From an uncultured Candidatus Peribacteria bacterium (GTDB taxonomy: Bacteria > Patescibacteriota > Gracilibacteria > RBG-16-42-10): a stretch of 64,000 nt of DNA. Location: NCBI GenBank assembly GCA_964514565.1, contig CAZERA010000001.1, positions 1 to 64,000 of the forward strand. Reading direction: 5' to 3'. Positions 54,001 to 60,000 of this stretch are shown piece by piece; the stretch's first letter is position 1; every line of letters starts with the position of its first letter. Made by a program: the position numbers.

Positions 54001-57000
54001 TGTAGGCAATCCTGAGAAGGTATTCACACCTTTCTTATACGAAAAAGATGTCCATCCAATCGTGGCCCAGGTATTTGGTAGCACTCCAGATGCCTTTTAC
54101 CAATCCGCGATCATGGTCGCCCATATGGGGTTTGATGGCATTGATATTAATATGGGTTGCCCAGCCAAAAACATCTCAGCTCGAGGCGCTGGTGCTGGTT
54201 TAATCCGCACACCAGAGCTCGCCCAAGCAATCATTCGAGCAGTACAACAAGGTGTAGTGGACTATGAGCAAGGAAAAGGCATAGATGACCTCAAAATCCC
54301 CCAAAGAACCAAAGACTATCTTTGGCAACACTACCCTAGTCCGGCCGAGAAGCGCCCGCTACTACCGGTATCAGTAAAAACTCGCATCGGCTATGACGAA
54401 ATTGTAATTGAAAAATGGGTAGAAACGCTACTTGAATGCACCCCGGTCAATATAAGCATTCATGGTCGTACCTTGGAACAAATGTATAGTGGCAAAGCAG
54501 ATTGGGATGCCATCGGTAGAGCAGTGAAAATTATTCACCAAACCGAAACATCAGTTTTAGGAAACGGTGACATTCAAGACCTTGCCGACGCCCAGCAAAA
54601 AATAGAGCAGTACAAAGTAGATGGTGTTTTGATTGGTCGAGCATGTTTTGGTAACCCTTGGATTTTTAGAGGTCATGTACCAACAATAGAAGAACGCTTA
54701 AATGCTGCAGTAGAACATGCAAAACTCTATGAATCATGGTTTGGCACCGAGTTCTTTCACCCAATGCGAAAACACCTAAGCTGGTACATACATGGTTTTT
54801 CTAATGCTAAAGACTTACGACTTGCCTTGATCAAAACCAATTCCGCTTCGGAAGTAGTTACTATAGTGGACCAGTATCTGAATCAAGTTGAGAAGTAAGA
54901 AGTAAAAGGGAAGAGTTAAAAAGTGTATGGACAGAGTGTGGCTTCTAAAGCCAATTATCTCCACAGCTGTGGAACCCCCAGCTCATAGATTTCTTACCTC
55001 TTACTTCTTACTTCTTACTTTTGTGCTACCATTGTTTCGCAAAGCTCCTATGCTTCATTATTTATGAAAATCCTACGCTACGTGTTGTTAGTACTTGGTT
55101 TAAGTATGTGTTTGACTCTGCCCACTCAGGCTGCAACCGTGGTTACTACACCAAAAGCAGTGATTGATAGCCCTGATACAAGTGAGGCAAATAAAAACGT
55201 TTTATTTGAAGCTGGGCGATCTACTGGCACGATCAAAACTACTCAATACTTATGGGATTTTGGCGATCAATCAGTTGGTAGTGGTCCAGATATCTTTCAT
55301 ACCTATAGCAAGCCTGGTCGCTATACTATTACACTCACACTCAACAATGGAGATATTGGTACTAGCGAACCAATCAAAAGCAGCAAAGAACTCTTCGTAT
55401 ACAACCAGGTGCAAACACTTTTAGTGAATGAAACCAGCGATCAGTCGCAGAGAGATAGTTTAGTAAATCACCTGAGACAAAAAAATATTTACCTTCACCA
55501 GCTCAACGTTGACCGGATTTGGAGCCCAGAGGAGGAACTACTCCTACGTCGCAGTACTTTTGTTTTCACTTACCTACACCCGGCTGAATTGGTTAGTGAT
55601 CAAAAACATGACGCATTGAGTCAAAATACCGTAGTAATTATGAGTCAGGAGAATCTTCAGACTCTGGAGAGACTTAGTAGAACTTCTTTTAGTAGCATTG
55701 GTGCCAACAAAATTATTCTCGCGCCAATCACAGCAGCAGATGAAGATAGTGTGACAAACCAATCAGTTTTAGAAGCTTCAAATATCGCTGAGCTAACTGG
55801 CATGTTGACCAACCGAAAGTTATCATTCGTCGAGGTCAATACTCAGCAAGCAATTGGTATCGATAACTTTATGCTCGCCATCACCAATTATCTCCGCAGT
55901 AAGGGCGCTCCAGACTGGACTCTATTTCTACTGCTCAGTATCCCCTTGATTGCAACGATGATTAGCTTTGCTCGTCAGTTCATTGGTCTTGCGACTCTTG
56001 GTATCTATACCCCAACAGTCTTTACTATAATCTTCCTCCTCATCGGTGGTTTTACTGGAAGTATGACCTTTATCGTCATTGCTGTAATTAGCATCCTACT
56101 CCAAAAGTTTCTCAATAAAGTGAGGATTATGTACGTCCCCAAAGTAGCGATGATTTTGATGCTTACAAGCATGTTGATATTGGGCATTCTCGCAGTATCT
56201 GCTTACTTTGGCTTCAATTTCTTGATTACTATTGATATTTTCCCTGTGATTTTATTGCTCACCATGGGAGAACGTTTTATCAGCTTAAAGCTCGAACGTG
56301 GGCTCAAGTCTGCCAGTTTATTGTTTGCCGAAACAATCATTGTTGCCATAGTGATTTATCTGATCTTACAACATACGCGAGAATCAATATTGGCTTACCC
56401 TGAGATTATTTTCTTGATGATTCCACTCAATTATTTGATTGGTAAATGGACAGGTCTACGTCTTTCTGAAATCCTCCGTTTTAGAGAATTGGTAGACACG
56501 GTAGAGCAAGACGCTGAAGAAGAATAAGTCACCTCGACCTTATGAGAATCTTTGCTACTGGTATCCTAGGTATCAACGCTAGAAATCTACTGTATATTCG
56601 CCCTTTTAATAAAAAAAAGGCAACCAATTTGGCAGATCACAAACTCCAATCAAAAGTATTTTTCAAAAATCATCAAATCCCGACTGCTCCTGTATATCAA
56701 GTCATCCACAACAAAAAAGAATTAGAGAGTTTTCGCTTTGAAGATATTGCAGCTAAAAGCTTTGTAATCAAACCAAACCGGGGTTTTGGTGGCCAGGGTA
56801 TTAAAATTATTTTGCAGAAAGACACTTTGTCCGAAGACAAAAAAAAGGAACTCAAAAGCCACATTGCCAATATCTTGGACGGGAGCTTTTCCTTAACCAG
56901 CGCGCCTGATATTGCATTGATTGAGCAAAGAATTATCTGTCATCCTGAGCTTTCAGCCTTTTGCTATAAAGGACTGCCAGATATACGCGTAATCGTTCAC

Positions 57001-60000
57001 AATCTAATTCCGATAATGGCAATGCTGCGATTACCTACCAAGGAATCTGACGGTAAAGCAAATTATCATGCAGGTGGCGCAATTGCCGGCATAGACTTGG
57101 CTACAGGAAAGATTACCCATGCTGTCATTCATGGTAAATATGTCAAAACCTTACCGGACCAAACCGAGCCAATCATTGGCTTTACTATCCCCAACTGGGA
57201 TCAAATCCTACTAATCGCATCTCGAGCACAACTCTATTCAAACATTGGCTATTTGGCGATCGATATCGTGCTCAATAAAAAGGGTGACCCATTGGTATTA
57301 GAAATGAATGCTCGTGGTGGACTGAGTATCCAGGTAGCTAATAAAGCAAAATTACGCGAACGTCTGGATCGTATTCAGGGACTCAGAATTAAAGACCCAG
57401 CCAAAGGTGTTCGCATTGGCAAAGAGCTATTTGGTACACACAAAACTTCTGACACGCTAGAAAGTGAAATAGAAGAATTGTCTGGTAAAGAAGTGTTGGG
57501 TTCATATGAAACTGTAGAACTAATCGGCAAAAACAATCAGGTTGAACATACGCTCGCGCTAGTAGATACCAGTAAAATCTACACATCACTCGATAAGAAG
57601 TTGGCTCAAAAGCTGGGACTAATCTCTCCTCAATATGAAGAGAAGGGCAAGACGGATTTTTTTCGGATTACTTTGACCCTAGGTAAGAAAAAACGGCGAA
57701 CATTTGTGACCATCAAGGATTACAGTAAAGAAAGTTACCAAGTGGTGGTGGGTAGGAGAAATCTTCGTGATGCCTTGATCGACCCATTCAGAGGGCTACC
57801 TAGCAACTACCTACAAGTACCGAACCAGCTTTCTAATACCCTAGAACAAGAAAAAGAAGCTGATCAGCTCATAGGAGAAATTTACGATAAATTCAATTTT
57901 CTCCATTATTTAAATCCAGTAAATATCGCGGAAGAACATACTAAATGGCTAGAAAACCATGAGTATATTCCTCAGCTGGAATATCGCACATTACCAGATA
58001 GCTACAAGAGCATGCGTAGCGAATTACAAACTATTCCGGAGTTTGAAAGTGACATTGGAAAGTGCATTACCCAAAGAGCAAAAGAGATATTGAAACAAAT
58101 TAGCTTACTGGAATCAATTGGTACTGATAACTATGTCTCCCTCAGTAAAGAGCTCTTCAGACCACTGACTCTCGATGAAAAAACATTGATGGAAGAATTG
58201 GTCGCTAATCCCATTTCACTCAAAGCTAACCCTGATGAATTATTAGATGCGACGGTCATCCAGAAAGCATTTAGCCAAGCGATTGAGAATCTTCATCTGG
58301 ACCGCTGGAAAGCCAAGATCGAGAAAATCACTACCACCAACATTCGCGTAAAGAGTAACTATACCATCGGTATCCCTGAGCATAAAAAAGTAGCAGCACA
58401 TCGCATCAAACAATTGATCGCTCATGAGTTGATGGCGCATGCAATCACTCGTGAGAATGGCGAAAAACAACAATGGCATATCTTCAGCTATGGATTTCCT
58501 CGCTATATTTACAGCCAAGAGGGATTAGCAGTATGGCACGAAACCCTAGCAACGCCTGAGTATAAAGCGAATATTTTATATCGTGCAGCACGAGATGCCT
58601 TTTTAGCACAGGAAGCAGATCGACTGACTGGAAAAGAATTGATGAGTCTACTGCTGAGTATGTTTAAGCCCGCAAATGCTTGGCAGACCTATATTCGGCT
58701 GAAACGTGGTACCACCAATACCAATACGATTGGCGGCTGGGGTAGAGAATCAGTTTATTTTATTGGCTATAATCAATTGAGCCAACTAGAAAAAGTAGAT
58801 GATATTTTTTATAGCGGACGCGTCACTGTAGACGATATCGCGGTAGCAACAAAATATAATAGCATTGCTCAGATTGATCGGCCCCAATTTCCTTTTGAAT
58901 TCTCACTATGAAAGCGGCTCTAGTCCTTTTCATCAGCACTCCTATTTTGGGCCAAGCTGGTATTAGTATTGAAAAAGATGCTGAGCAAGCATTGCGACTC
59001 TATACCACCTATGTCGAAGAACTACTTAGCTTATTCGCTGGCCACGCTACAATTGATGTACTTTTTAGCTGCGAAGAAAAATTCCAGTCAGCACTGATCA
59101 GTAATCACTTTGTACGTAGTAAAAACTGTTTAGTTTATAGTGGGTCACTGGGTAAAAAATTGGCAGAAATCACTCATTATTGTGGTGACTACCAAGACTA
59201 TGACTTTATTTTTATTTGTCCCAAAGAGTTTACCTTGATCACACCAGAACTACTCGAAAGCTATGTTAAGCGCCTCCAAAGAACAAAAAGAAGTATATTG
59301 ATGGTGAGTCACAATCAACAATCTTTAGATTTAATCGGCTTAAATTTCCCTTTTCAGACCATCTATCAAGATATTATTTGGCAGAAAGATGATGTAGTGG
59401 GGCAAATCAAAACCAACCTAAAACACCAATCAATCCCTTGTATTAGTGTCACAAGTGAGATAGTCTGGCGCACGAAAGCACAATATTCTGACCAAATGTC
59501 TAGCGAGTACCCTAAGACCTGTGCTATTCTAAAGGGTAACTTAAATTCATAACCATTTTTTATGCGTAATAGTCAAGTAACAAAATTAAAAGTAGGCGTC
59601 TGTGTAATTATCAAAGATGCTGACAACAAAATTCTTTTAGGAAAACGCCAAAATGTACTTGGCGAGAATACTTGGGGACTACCTGGTGGACATCAAAAAA
59701 TTGGTGAAAGCGTGATGGAATGTGCTAAGCGTGAAGTCATGGGTGAGGTGAACATCGACTTACAAGATATGGAACTAGTAGGCGTAGCCGAGATGGTGGA
59801 TACAGGACTTGATTACCAATTAGTAGAGCTGGGTTATGCTTCAGACAAATGGCAAGGAATTCTTGAGCTCAAAGAACACAAGTACTGCAGCGAATGGAAG
59901 TTCTTTGATCTCCAAGAATTACCAGCAGAACTTTTCCTTCCTCACAAACCAATCATTGATCTCTTTGTAACATCAATGCTCAATAGTGAGAAGAAAGCTT

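Follow-up and report, generated by a model that had tools for sequence, protein, structure and literature searches.

A gene for a 7TM protein followed by a ligase-peptidase fusion

Within the window, the 64,000-nucleotide stretch of DNA from a Candidatus Peribacteria bacterium that was analysed, two ORFs on the + strand are separated by 14 nt, with g00056 downstream of g00055. The genes and their features are as follows.

55064..56527, + strand: g00055, 7TM membrane protein with a secreted N-terminus, 487 aa (signal peptide, PKD, alpha/beta ectodomain, 7TM_transglut module, cytoplasmic C-terminal helix ending in -EEE)
55148..55402, + strand: extracellular PKD domain, aa 29-113 (Pfam PKD_4, 5.1e-15; Foldseek to the ColG PKD domain, TMt 0.88)
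55406..55837, + strand: extracellular alpha/beta domain with no family match, aa 115-258 (secondary structure of the model)
55913..56446, + strand: seven transmembrane helices, aa 284-461, PF14402 7TM_transglut module (Pfam, model, positive-inside count)
56453..56485, + strand: juxtamembrane motif GLRLSEILRFR, aa 464-474 (alignment)
56516..56524, + strand: terminal Glu-Glu-Glu, aa 485-487, coded GAA GAA GAA and followed by TAA; proposed acceptor/trim site (sequence; conservation)
56542..58911, + strand: g00056, cytoplasmic triple fusion, 789 aa (Pfam, NCBIfam, alignment, structure model)
56542..56610, + strand: strongly conserved N-terminal segment, aa 1-23 (alignment)
56581..57435, + strand: RimK/RloC-like ATP-grasp ligase domain, aa 14-298 (PF14397, 5.9e-61; TIGR02291; Foldseek)
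57475..57801, + strand: retropepsin-like middle domain, RimB/RloA-related, aa 312-420 (beta-rich fold in the model; hhalign; family matches)
57871..58908, + strand: MATCAP-type metallocarboxypeptidase domain, aa 444-789 (PF08014, 93 bits, cut-off 27; profile; Foldseek)
58423..58440, + strand: HELMAH zinc/catalytic motif, aa 628-633 (alignment)
58516..58530, + strand: QEGLA motif, aa 659-663 (alignment, including to the human enzyme)

Across 80 related loci the neighbourhood has no conserved core beyond this pair of genes, and flanking genes are conserved in just 3-4 of them. In close relatives only, the pair is followed by a cofC-like nucleotidyl/glycosyl-transferase-like gene and a double NUDIX gene. 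In the organism's own genome (92.7% complete) no further PF14397, PF14402 or PF05618 genes were found, and our literature searches found no paper on this system.

The structure model of g00055 displays an N-terminal signal helix and seven transmembrane helices. Pfam assigns PKD to aa 29-97 and 7TM_transglut to aa 289-476 (8e-24), and has no match for the alpha/beta domain, which occupies the position of the inactive transglutaminase in classical RloB; transglutaminases are absent among the Foldseek matches of g00055. The NCBIfam RloB model matches g00055 in the 7TM part alone, with 56 bits where the cut-off is 900. Mean K+R counts are higher on the inner side (predicted inner loops 1.0, 3.4 and 2.8; tail 4.05) than on the outer (loops 0.26, 0.29 and 0.76), a bias which places the C-terminus, ...RFRELVDTVEQDAEEE (...EQDAEEE), in the cytoplasm. 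G464, L465, E469, R472 and F473 of the juxtamembrane motif are invariant, and this motif presumably docks the ligase. Beyond it lies a short tail of 8-13 residues past RFR, helical to its end in the model.

In g00056, the N-terminal segment carries invariant G7, L9, G10, N12, A13, R14, N15, L17, Y18, P21 and N23; alignment A4 likewise shows its N-A-R core as invariant, and alignment A5 its N and R. Residues 1-21 are disordered in the monomer model (pLDDT < 50), and the segment may contact the 7TM partner. The ligase domain matches ATPgrasp_ST over aa 14-279 (5.9e-61) and TIGR02291 with 247 bits, under the cut-off of 314. Its closest solved ATP-grasp structures in Foldseek are RimK (7qys, E 7e-09, TMt about 0.55) and then ArgX in complex with LysW. 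RimK and ArgX both act on the C-terminal Glu of a protein. Ligase residues K77, E254, N256 and R258 are kept in 69/69 sequences.

The middle domain has the signature D-T-S in g00056 and aligns with the C-terminal domain of the 431-aa relative P0137, which is annotated PF14397 + PF05618 (hhalign 98.8%, E 4e-17). Family matches in 35 members, all below cut-off, include gag-asp_proteas (13), Asp_protease_2 (11) and PF05618 (5). Most members carry the domain in a catalytically degenerate form, and its presence makes the enzyme a ligase, a degenerate endopeptidase and a carboxypeptidase in one chain. The C-terminal domain (Pfam MATCAP aa 473-783, 2.2e-26) is a true homologue, matching PDB 7z5g by profile (E 5e-23) and in Foldseek (TMt 0.63-0.69). 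H628, E629 and H633 are invariant, HELMAH aligns to HEIGTH of human MATCAP, and E660 of QEGLA is presumed to be the third zinc ligand. At least 1151 proteins among 8000 scored candidates resemble the fusion at E<=1e-20, and among the matches listed 120/120 carry PF14397+PF08014.

These results agree with a preliminary description of the locus in most respects: the two same-strand genes 14 bp apart, the PKD (29-97) and 7TM_transglut (289-476) calls, the cytoplasmic C-terminus, the ATPgrasp_ST and MATCAP domains with intact HELMAH and EGLA, and the wide occurrence of the fusion were all recovered. Two of its statements on domains need amending. Its two-part ligase/MATCAP fusion has a third, RimB/RloA-type retropepsin-like domain between the two parts, which had been missed, and its label "RloB-like" for g00055 fits the 7TM part of a protein lacking the inactive transglutaminase that defines RloB.

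The acidic C-terminus of the membrane partner

Of the 80 loci, three lack upstream DNA and one has a truncated partner. Among the other 76 partners, 72 carry at least two Glu at the C-terminus (50 EE, 20 EEE, 2 EEEE), so the conservation of -EE/-EEE stated in the preliminary description is strong for partners of fused enzymes. These proteins are just 25-33% identical, and the residues ahead of the terminal Glu vary (RHIEE, KHAEE, RYSEEE, HNEEE, DTEE, DAEEE). The background rate of -EE ends is about 0.2-0.5%: about 5/2700 other stop-to-stop ORFs of the same loci and 5/1030 crude ORFs of the own genome, where g00055 alone ends in -EEE. The four exceptions (-TQD, -LD, -LD, -FKNN) belong to systems that keep every catalytic residue checked. 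An occurrence outside CPR, claimed earlier from Nitrospirae/Nitrospirota loci, is doubtful: the Oceanicoccus-labelled L012 and the Nitrospirota-labelled L017 and L023 come from genomes of 0.9-1.1 Mb, and their enzymes nest in a Peregrinibacteria-type clade. The Nitrospirota-labelled loci are probably mislabelled CPR genomes.

Two sister architectures share the ligase/7TM pairing, a related juxtamembrane motif (G-x-R..E..RF(R/K), common to all three architectures) and the ligase N-terminal motif. Among these 149 loci, the -EE tail occurs in 1/73 partners of ligase+retropepsin enzymes and 0/76 classical three-gene Rlo (RloB-type) partners. The tail therefore cannot be a general Rlo substrate, as had been proposed, and the ancestral product of the ligase was not the tail. 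Five ligase+retropepsin loci (L114, L134, L146, L158, L159) have a separate MATCAP-like gene nearby and partners with non-EE tails; no MATCAP-type (QEGLA/DUF1704) gene lies within 3.5 kb in 80 classical Rlo loci. On the tree, a single branch carries the origin of both the -EE tail and the MATCAP fusion. This is a single evolutionary event, one independent contrast, so the association carries no statistical weight of its own. Both lineages that part at the deepest split within the fused clade have these tails, which are thus ancestral and maintained.

Comparison with known ligase and peptidase systems

Among the closest known systems is RloABC of Pseudomonas aeruginosa (mBio 2025, PMC12239564), in which a 7TM_transglut-family protein is encoded directly upstream of a RimK-related "alpha-L-glutamate ligase-like" ATP-grasp enzyme, as here. 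The two share the juxtamembrane motif, the N-A-R-N motif at the ligase N-terminus and a retropepsin-type peptidase in the set. They differ in the ectodomain (PKD plus alpha/beta here, inactive transglutaminase there), in the retropepsin-like unit (an internal, cytoplasmic, largely degenerate domain of the ligase protein here, a secreted enzyme there), in the MATCAP domain added here and in the -EE end of the partner.

The RimK-RimB-RpsF system of ribosomal protein S6 glutamylation, including the RimBK hybrid, likewise pairs and sometimes fuses an ATP-grasp alpha-L-glutamate ligase with a retropepsin-like protease, and writes and erases Glu on a protein C-terminus (PMC11957791); RimK, the closest fold to the g00056 ligase, adds Glu to the C-terminus of RpsF (PMC12239564). 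RimB is N-terminal in RimBK (PMC11957791), whereas the order here is ligase then protease, with an extra metallocarboxypeptidase, and the proposed acceptor is a membrane protein. S6 of the own genome ends ...DQMLK, without an acidic end, which excludes the usual RimK substrate.

The tubulin tail cycle (TTL/TTLL against MATCAP/TMCP1-2) has a MATCAP domain homologous in sequence and fold to that of g00056. Its logic, in which an ATP-grasp ligase lengthens an acidic C-terminal tail by added residues and a MATCAP-type carboxypeptidase takes them off, would be shared here by analogy, as predicted from the genes. MATCAP/TMCP enzymes trim acidic tails at the C-terminus, with Glu among the residues removed, and TMCP1/2 deglutamylate (PMC10499314); TTLL11, in primary-chain elongation, adds Glu to the terminal alpha-carboxyl (PMC12366701, PMC13648886). 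Here, however, the ligase is of the RimK/RloC and not the TTL family, writer and eraser are one polypeptide, and a 7TM protein takes the place of tubulin as the proposed substrate. The C-terminal domain of g00056 also matches the model for stand-alone bacterial QEGLA/DUF1704 proteins (TIGR02421, 8.9e-28) and shares its HExxxH and QEGLA motifs; the score of 97.6 bits is far under the equivalog cut-off of 338.65, and the domain here is fused to a ligase.

A possible tail glutamylation cycle and its alternatives

We tentatively favour, at somewhat less than an even chance, a reading in which glutamates on the cytoplasmic tail of the partner are added by the ligase and removed by the MATCAP domain. 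The 7TM protein would show its PKD and alpha/beta ectodomain outside the cell and, inside, the short GLR..E..RFR helix followed by a free -EE(E) C-terminus. The g00056 enzyme would dock on this helix, probably via its conserved N-terminal segment; its RimK-like domain would attach alpha-linked glutamates to the terminal Glu, and its MATCAP domain would take them off singly until the -EE stub encoded by the gene is left. The middle domain, being degenerate in most members, is read as a poly-Glu-binding or scaffolding remnant of a RimB/RloA endopeptidase whose trimming role may have passed to MATCAP. This model predicts glutamate as the added residue, contacts that serve docking, a covalently modified tail, and a direction and purpose for the cycle. 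It is consistent with the 72/76 -EE tails amid variable preceding residues, the cytoplasmic location of the tail and both enzyme domains, the RimK and ArgX folds, the MATCAP homology, the exclusion of S6, the ancestry of -EE and its onset with the MATCAP fusion, and the close, conserved pairing of the two genes. Against it count the non-EE sister loci, the intact four exceptions, the unfused MATCAP genes beside non-EE partners, the single contrast, and the short, helical tail of the model.

Several of these points argue for another product: free poly-alpha-L-glutamate or a glutamylated envelope or exported molecule, with the 7TM protein regulating or exporting it, the peptidase domains limiting its length, and -EE a clade-specific, non-covalent trait. 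RimK makes free poly-alpha-L-glutamate in vitro. The 149 sister systems use the same ligase family and 7TM module with other tails, the non-EE exceptions keep their active sites, and unfused MATCAP genes adjoin non-EE partners. In Pseudomonas, loss of the periplasmic RloA proteases, which cleave poly-Glu, is suppressed when rloB or rloC is deleted (PMC12239564); these genetics put the toxic RloB/RloC product within reach of periplasmic RloA, so an exported product fits better than a cytoplasmic tail. Free poly-alpha-Glu is considered by those authors, and synthesis of poly-alpha-Glu by RimK is stimulated by RimB (PMC11957791). However, this explanation accounts neither for 72/76 terminal Glu-Glu across deep divergence nor for the onset of -EE on the carboxypeptidase-fusion branch, and a Foldseek search, which gave PKD matches only, found no transporter-like solved fold for the 7TM module. 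We consider it rather unlikely.

We think it less probable still that the -EE tail is a non-covalent ligand of fixed length, a dock or a pseudosubstrate or product mimic in the MATCAP or ligase acceptor site, with signals sensed by the ectodomain switching the enzyme on or off as the juxtamembrane helix moves. A short, helical tail right after an invariant helix would suit this role, as would a stable, gene-encoded run of 2-4 Glu; the tail was gained together with a domain whose family is described as recognising -EE-type C-termini, and the ancestral ligase function needed no -EE tail. Yet one would expect turnover of an -EE end that sits beside an alpha-L-glutamate-type ligase and a carboxypeptidase, both active, and RimK extends -EE ends (cited in PMC12239564). 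A non-glutamate product of the ligase, such as a surface polysaccharide-linked amino acid, with MATCAP processing an unrelated peptide, is very unlikely: the Pfam name "sugar-transfer associated ATP-grasp" and its description, the sub-cut-off TIGR02291 score and the cofC-like and double NUDIX genes of close relatives point that way, but the flanking genes are rarely kept, the solved folds closest to the ligase belong to RimK and ArgX and not to sugar-modifying ligases, and the RimB/RloA-like and MATCAP peptidase families are both described as acting on Glu-rich C-terminal sequence.

On the tail-cycle reading, the two genes of this CPR bacterium may form a glutamylation module tethered to the membrane, an assignment we hold with some reserve, in which the length of the tail would signal or adjust receptor state.

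The gene pair and its domains

The two genes lie 14 nt apart on the same strand, as the preliminary description had it:

55064-56527, same strand as the gene below: P0001 (g00055), 7TM membrane partner, 487 aa
56542-58911, same strand: P0002 (g00056), fusion enzyme, 789 aa, starting 14 nt after P0001

P0002 carries an ATPgrasp_ST ligase domain (PF14397, 5.9e-61; 206.6 bits, cut-off 31.4) and a MATCAP domain at aa 473-783 (PF08014, 93.1 bits, gathering cut-off 27; TIGR02421 QEGLA match, 8.9e-28). Both had been recognized previously; a third, beta-rich domain between them (aa 312-420), displayed by the AlphaFold model (mean pLDDT 83.5), had been missed. 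The ligase is a relative of the TIGR02291 (alpha-L-glutamate ligase-like) family and not an equivalog, since its score of 247.1 bits lies under the equivalog cut-off of 314.2.

Conservation was assessed in an alignment (A1) that holds 27 diverse fusions and by a second residue check on 69 full-length fusions of related loci. The ATP-grasp residues K77, E254, N256 and R258, which we take to be catalytic with roles as in the rest of the family, are invariant in A1 and kept in 69/69 fusions, and H628, E629 and H633 of the HExxxH motif are invariant in both sets (27/27 and 69/69). In the QEGLA motif, E660, G661 and A663 are invariant in A1 and Q659 and L662 nearly so; K721, R722 and G723 are invariant there as well. 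Position 659 is Glu, not Gln, in 12 of the 69 full-length fusions, all of which keep the other A1-invariant residues. The A1 profile retrieved human MATCAP from the PDB (7z5g, E 5.2e-23), aligning HEIGTH and EEGLA of that enzyme with HExxxH and EGLA. The two motifs claimed earlier, HExxxH and EGLA, are invariant across the 69 fusions.

MATCAP alone was matched when the sequence profile of the full fusion was run against the PDB; ATP-grasp relatives emerged by fold only. Foldseek with the P0002 model gave MATCAP 7z5g and 7z6s (E 8.5e-11 to 1.5e-10, TMt 0.63-0.69), followed by RimK (7qys, 5zk6 and 4iwx, E 7e-09 to 8e-08) and ArgX complexed with LysW. What RimK and ArgX ligases modify is the Glu at a protein's C-terminus, and we infer from these relationships that the P0002 ligase would be specific for L-glutamate and use a C-terminal Glu as acceptor. 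By match, motif and fold, the C-terminal domain is a MATCAP/TMCP-family metallocarboxypeptidase with putative activity on acidic tails.

The middle domain is weakly similar to PF05618 (12.3-12.9 bits, cut-off 27; E 0.11-0.16). Among 35 aligned members, 13 match gag-asp_proteas (best 1.7e-4), 11 Asp_protease_2 and 5 PF05618, and the domain profile has marginal matches to Ddi1 retropepsin in the PDB (E about 1). Many shorter CPR relatives of about 430 aa are annotated as ATPgrasp_ST plus PF05618, and hhalign aligns the middle domain with the C-terminal domain of one of these, P0137, a 431-aa relative carrying PF14397 and PF05618 annotations (residues 314-429, AKIDTGA), at 98.8% probability and E 4.3e-17. 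The finding of these shorter relatives settled our view: together with the weak Pfam matches, the alignment marks the domain as probably retropepsin-like. Read from its sequence, P0002 is one chain made of a RloC/RimK-like ligase, a putative RimB/RloA-like retropepsin domain and MATCAP. The signature in the window is D-T-S; only 15/69 fusions retain a D-[TS]-G triad, and N-P-L or D-P-x is frequent among the remainder. About 66/76 of the sister ligase+retropepsin enzymes, which lack MATCAP, have DTG. A proteolytically active RimB-RimK hybrid with the reverse domain order has already been described (PMC11957791); the order in P0002 is ligase, then retropepsin.

In the partner, P0001, an N-terminal signal helix is followed by a PKD domain and a 7TM_transglut module (PF14402, 8e-24). 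Its structure model (pLDDT 86.9) shows, from N to C, the PKD domain, an alpha/beta ectodomain (aa 115-258) and seven membrane helices (aa 284-461), with the C-terminal helix extending to the last residues; Foldseek searches with it matched PKD relatives only. Like RloB, P0001 has the 7TM_transglut module with a ligase gene directly downstream. Unlike RloB, it has no periplasmic inactive transglutaminase, a domain that neither the Pfam scan nor the Foldseek matches of the model returned, and it falls short of the full-length RloB model (NCBIfam NF052267: 56 bits, cut-off 900), aligning with profile positions 313-506, which are the 7TM part.

The P0001 sequence terminates in GLRLSEILRFRELVDTVEQDAEEE, with last codons GAA GAA GAA and stop TAA. 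Mean Lys+Arg counts are 1.0, 3.4 and 2.8 for the three predicted inner loops and 4.05 for the tail; the outer loops have 0.26, 0.29 and 0.76. The tail faces the cytoplasm, as judged from the signal peptide and this concentration of basic residues in the inner loops, in agreement with the earlier topology. Juxtamembrane residues G464, L465, E469, R472 and F473 are invariant among partners. Complex prediction with whole P0002 (A1) and P0001 aa 280-487 (a second alignment, A2), run without controls, gave ipSAE values just short of the 0.32 mark (0.30, 0.31 and 0.28) and weighs neither for nor against a contact.

Distribution and origin of the -EE tail

A1 searches returned 80 fused-type loci, of which 76 were scored (three had no upstream DNA and one a truncated partner). 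The preliminary description had proposed a conserved -EE/-EEE tail beside the fused enzyme, and partners ending in at least two Glu were indeed found in 72/76 loci (50 EE, 20 EEE, 2 EEEE). The exceptions end in -TQD (L006), -LD (L059 and L075) and -FKNN (L079, a short form of 256 aa). Beyond the near kin of P0001, partners are only 25-33% identical to it and the residues preceding the Glu pair vary. The background rate of -EE ends is about 0.2-0.5%, with approximately 5 of 2700 other ORFs in the same loci and 5 of 1030 in the window's own genome; g00055 is the sole ORF among those 1030 to end in -EEE.

For comparison, we collected 80 ligase+retropepsin loci from other CPR lineages and 80 loci with a stand-alone ligase from Proteobacteria, Nitrospirales, Cyanobacteria, Planctomycetes and others. 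In both sets the 7TM gene adjoins the ligase gene, in nearly all cases directly upstream, and G-x-R..E..RF(R/K) is kept. Where the stand-alone set has retropepsin-profile matches, these are mostly just upstream of the 7TM gene, in the order rloA-rloB-rloC. Partner C-termini in these sets are basic or neutral: -EE ends occur in 1/73 of the ligase+retropepsin partners and 0/76 of the classical ones. These counts contradict the proposal that the tail is the substrate of Rlo-type systems in general. A separate MATCAP-like gene occurs close by in five ligase+retropepsin loci, and in 0/5 of them does the partner end in -EE.

L158 (4779-5918), one of these five and in a MAG labelled Saccharibacteria, has a stand-alone 380-aa MATCAP-like gene (E 1e-69) immediately downstream of the ligase+retropepsin gene, and thus the three enzyme units of the window fusion unfused; its partner ends in -IIFR. 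The single -EE case of that set, L137 (2714-3463, -NEEE; WS6/Dojkabacteria OLB20, no MATCAP), is a second, independent origin of an acidic Glu end. Short partners of about 220-260 aa, consisting of the 7TM module without an ectodomain, occur at L079 (3231-4001) and at many ligase+retropepsin loci, and are the rule in Moranbacteria-type systems of that architecture. An apparent 7TM-ligase fusion at L157 was rejected as an artefact of a masked N stretch.

In a FastTree phylogeny of 227 ATP-grasp domains, each architecture is monophyletic (two changes among three states) and the tail state changes five times; a single independent contrast links MATCAP fusion with the -EE tail. When the tree is rooted on the stand-alone group, both lineages of the earliest divergence within the fused clade include -EE partners, and the four exceptions take nested positions. 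The tail was therefore gained a single time, on the MATCAP-fusion branch, and retained thereafter, with three or more losses that left the catalytic residues in place. The sister systems show that the -EE tail is younger than the partnership of ligase and 7TM protein and than the elements by which the two probably dock, and that these function without it. The elements in question are the juxtamembrane helix of the partner and the N-terminal segment of the ligase, a segment which the three architectures all conserve and which the model of the monomer leaves disordered.

The tail had also been thought to extend beyond CPR, on the strength of Nitrospirota-labelled loci. The enzymes of L012 (labelled Oceanicoccus), L017 and L023 (both Nitrospirota) fall inside the fused clade and their host genomes are 0.9-1.1 Mb; we read these labels as errors, and the 80 fused-type loci provide no evidence of the -EE form outside CPR. 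Non-CPR labels on CPR-type modules were noted at L012, L017, L023 and L025, at L096 and others, at L155, L166 and L167, and at L163, the labels concerned being Oceanicoccus, Nitrospirota/Nitrospirae, Bdellovibrionales, Gammaproteobacteria and Pacearchaeota. The last three, in the ligase+retropepsin set, likewise look doubtful.

Genomic context

MAGs labelled Candidatus Peribacteria hold the nearest relatives (77-78% identity). The genome (1.12 Mb, 7 contigs, 92.7% complete) encodes one PF14397 gene and one PF14402 gene, and a PF05618 gene was not found in the 92.7% that is represented. The locus thus differs from RloABC operons, which have a separate secreted RloA (PF05618 with signal peptide), in having only the internal retropepsin-like domain. 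Ribosomal protein S6 was rejected as a substrate: its ORF ends in ...INQKLDQMLK, not in an acidic -EE, and the RimK-S6 relation accordingly does not hold here.

The conserved core of the neighbourhood is the 7TM/ligase gene pair. The flanking genes are:

53750-54898, upstream of g00055: DusB-like tRNA dihydrouridine synthase (TIGR00737, 9.8e-68)
58908-59552, overlapping the g00056 stop by 4 nt: 214-aa gene, weak match to TIGR04282 (cofC-like/DUF2064 transferase, 1.7e-05)
59562-60470, after the 214-aa gene: 302-aa protein with two NUDIX domains

The Dus, cofC-like and NUDIX genes were rejected as parts of the system, as no more than 3-4 of 80 loci share them; the 214-aa gene is found in 4/80 and the double-NUDIX gene in 3/80, in the closest relatives only. 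The DusB-like ORF as listed starts at a TTG far upstream of its conserved part, and its true start is probably an internal Met.

In the main Peregrinibacteria-type clade (L009, 6337-7467 and 7476-9908, both on the minus strand, and equivalents), neighbours include a membrane SpoIIE/PP2C phosphatase (46/80), an MFS plus HEAT-repeat protein (45/80), QueA (42/80, named from N-terminal sequence only) and a small protein that by eye resembles STAS anti-sigma antagonists (28/80). Synteny might account for their recurrence, as might a functional connection with partner-switching signalling. At the fused-type locus L064 (2262-3965, on a contig shared with L165), a 567-aa cysteine-rich gene without a Pfam family lies between the 7TM and ligase genes. 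Its product ends in ...CDKCYLEEVY, an -EE-x-Tyr arrangement recalling tyrosinated tubulin, a single case which may be due to chance.

Possible roles of the tail

We consider it quite possible, if short of probable, that the ligase and MATCAP domains cycle glutamate covalently on the partner tail: the tethered RimK-type ligase would lengthen the gene-encoded -EE stub, and the MATCAP-type carboxypeptidase would shorten it. This reading is favoured because a free cytoplasmic -EE end is strongly maintained, because the tethered ligase belongs to a family whose model member, RimK, extends -EE ends (that of RpsF, as stated in a section of PMC12239564) and because the carboxypeptidase family trims acidic tails, Glu included (a passage of PMC10499314). 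The tubulin parallel drawn in the preliminary description is closer than was stated there: it is from the terminal alpha-carboxyl that TTLL11 extends the primary chain (abstracts of PMC12366701 and PMC13648886). Given glutamate cycling, poly-Glu length on the cytoplasmic tail of a 7TM surface receptor might store or transmit receptor state, a prokaryotic 'tail code' that we regard as possible, though less likely than not.

That the product of the enzyme is unrelated to the tail seems unlikely, but is the most serious alternative. Fusions that lost the -EE tail have intact catalytic residues (in the 69/69 check), and Pseudomonas genetics, as reported in part of PMC12239564, points to a product within reach from the periplasm; on the other side stands the maintenance of the cytoplasmic -EE end. 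Taken together with the sister systems, the Pseudomonas result means that the tail cannot be 'the Rlo substrate' and is at most a derived acceptor, primer or regulatory ligand in this clade. A non-covalent role, in which the tail is a docking element or pseudosubstrate, is improbable in our estimate. A chemistry other than glutamate is very improbable for this ligase.

Among the matches listed, the database names of the fusions are only 'DUF1704 domain-containing', 'tyrosine/phenylalanine carboxypeptidase domain-containing' and 'alpha-L-glutamate ligase-like/TIGR02421'. Our literature search found no paper joining MATCAP with ATP-grasp, and nothing relevant for KIAA0895 with prokaryotes; Iyer et al. 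2009 may describe the ligase/7TM/peptidase neighbourhood. In the TMCP paper (PMC10499314), 'prokaryot' is absent, and the mentions of 'bacteria' examined refer to recombinant expression. We regard the locus as a variant of the Rim/Rlo-type glutamylation systems, with an unpublished substrate hypothesis confined to one CPR clade.

Known bacterial polyglutamylation targets are very few (a portion of PMC12239564 names only RpsF and Legionella SdeA), and the CPR variant supplies a candidate acceptor. As this candidate, the writer and two eraser-type domains are encoded in two adjacent genes, a simple mass-spectrometric test is possible. The tail is absent from the classical, medically relevant Rlo systems, and it would be wrong to regard it as their substrate. 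That bacteria couple carboxypeptidases of the MATCAP type, familiar from the tubulin code, to RimK-type ligases is relevant to how the eukaryotic enzymes arose. If the 'tail code' is true, P0001 and its relatives would be the first bacterial polyglutamylated membrane protein, and the ligase-coupled C-terminal Glu eraser would offer a possible bacterial ancestry for the MATCAP/TMCP tubulin enzymes of eukaryotes.
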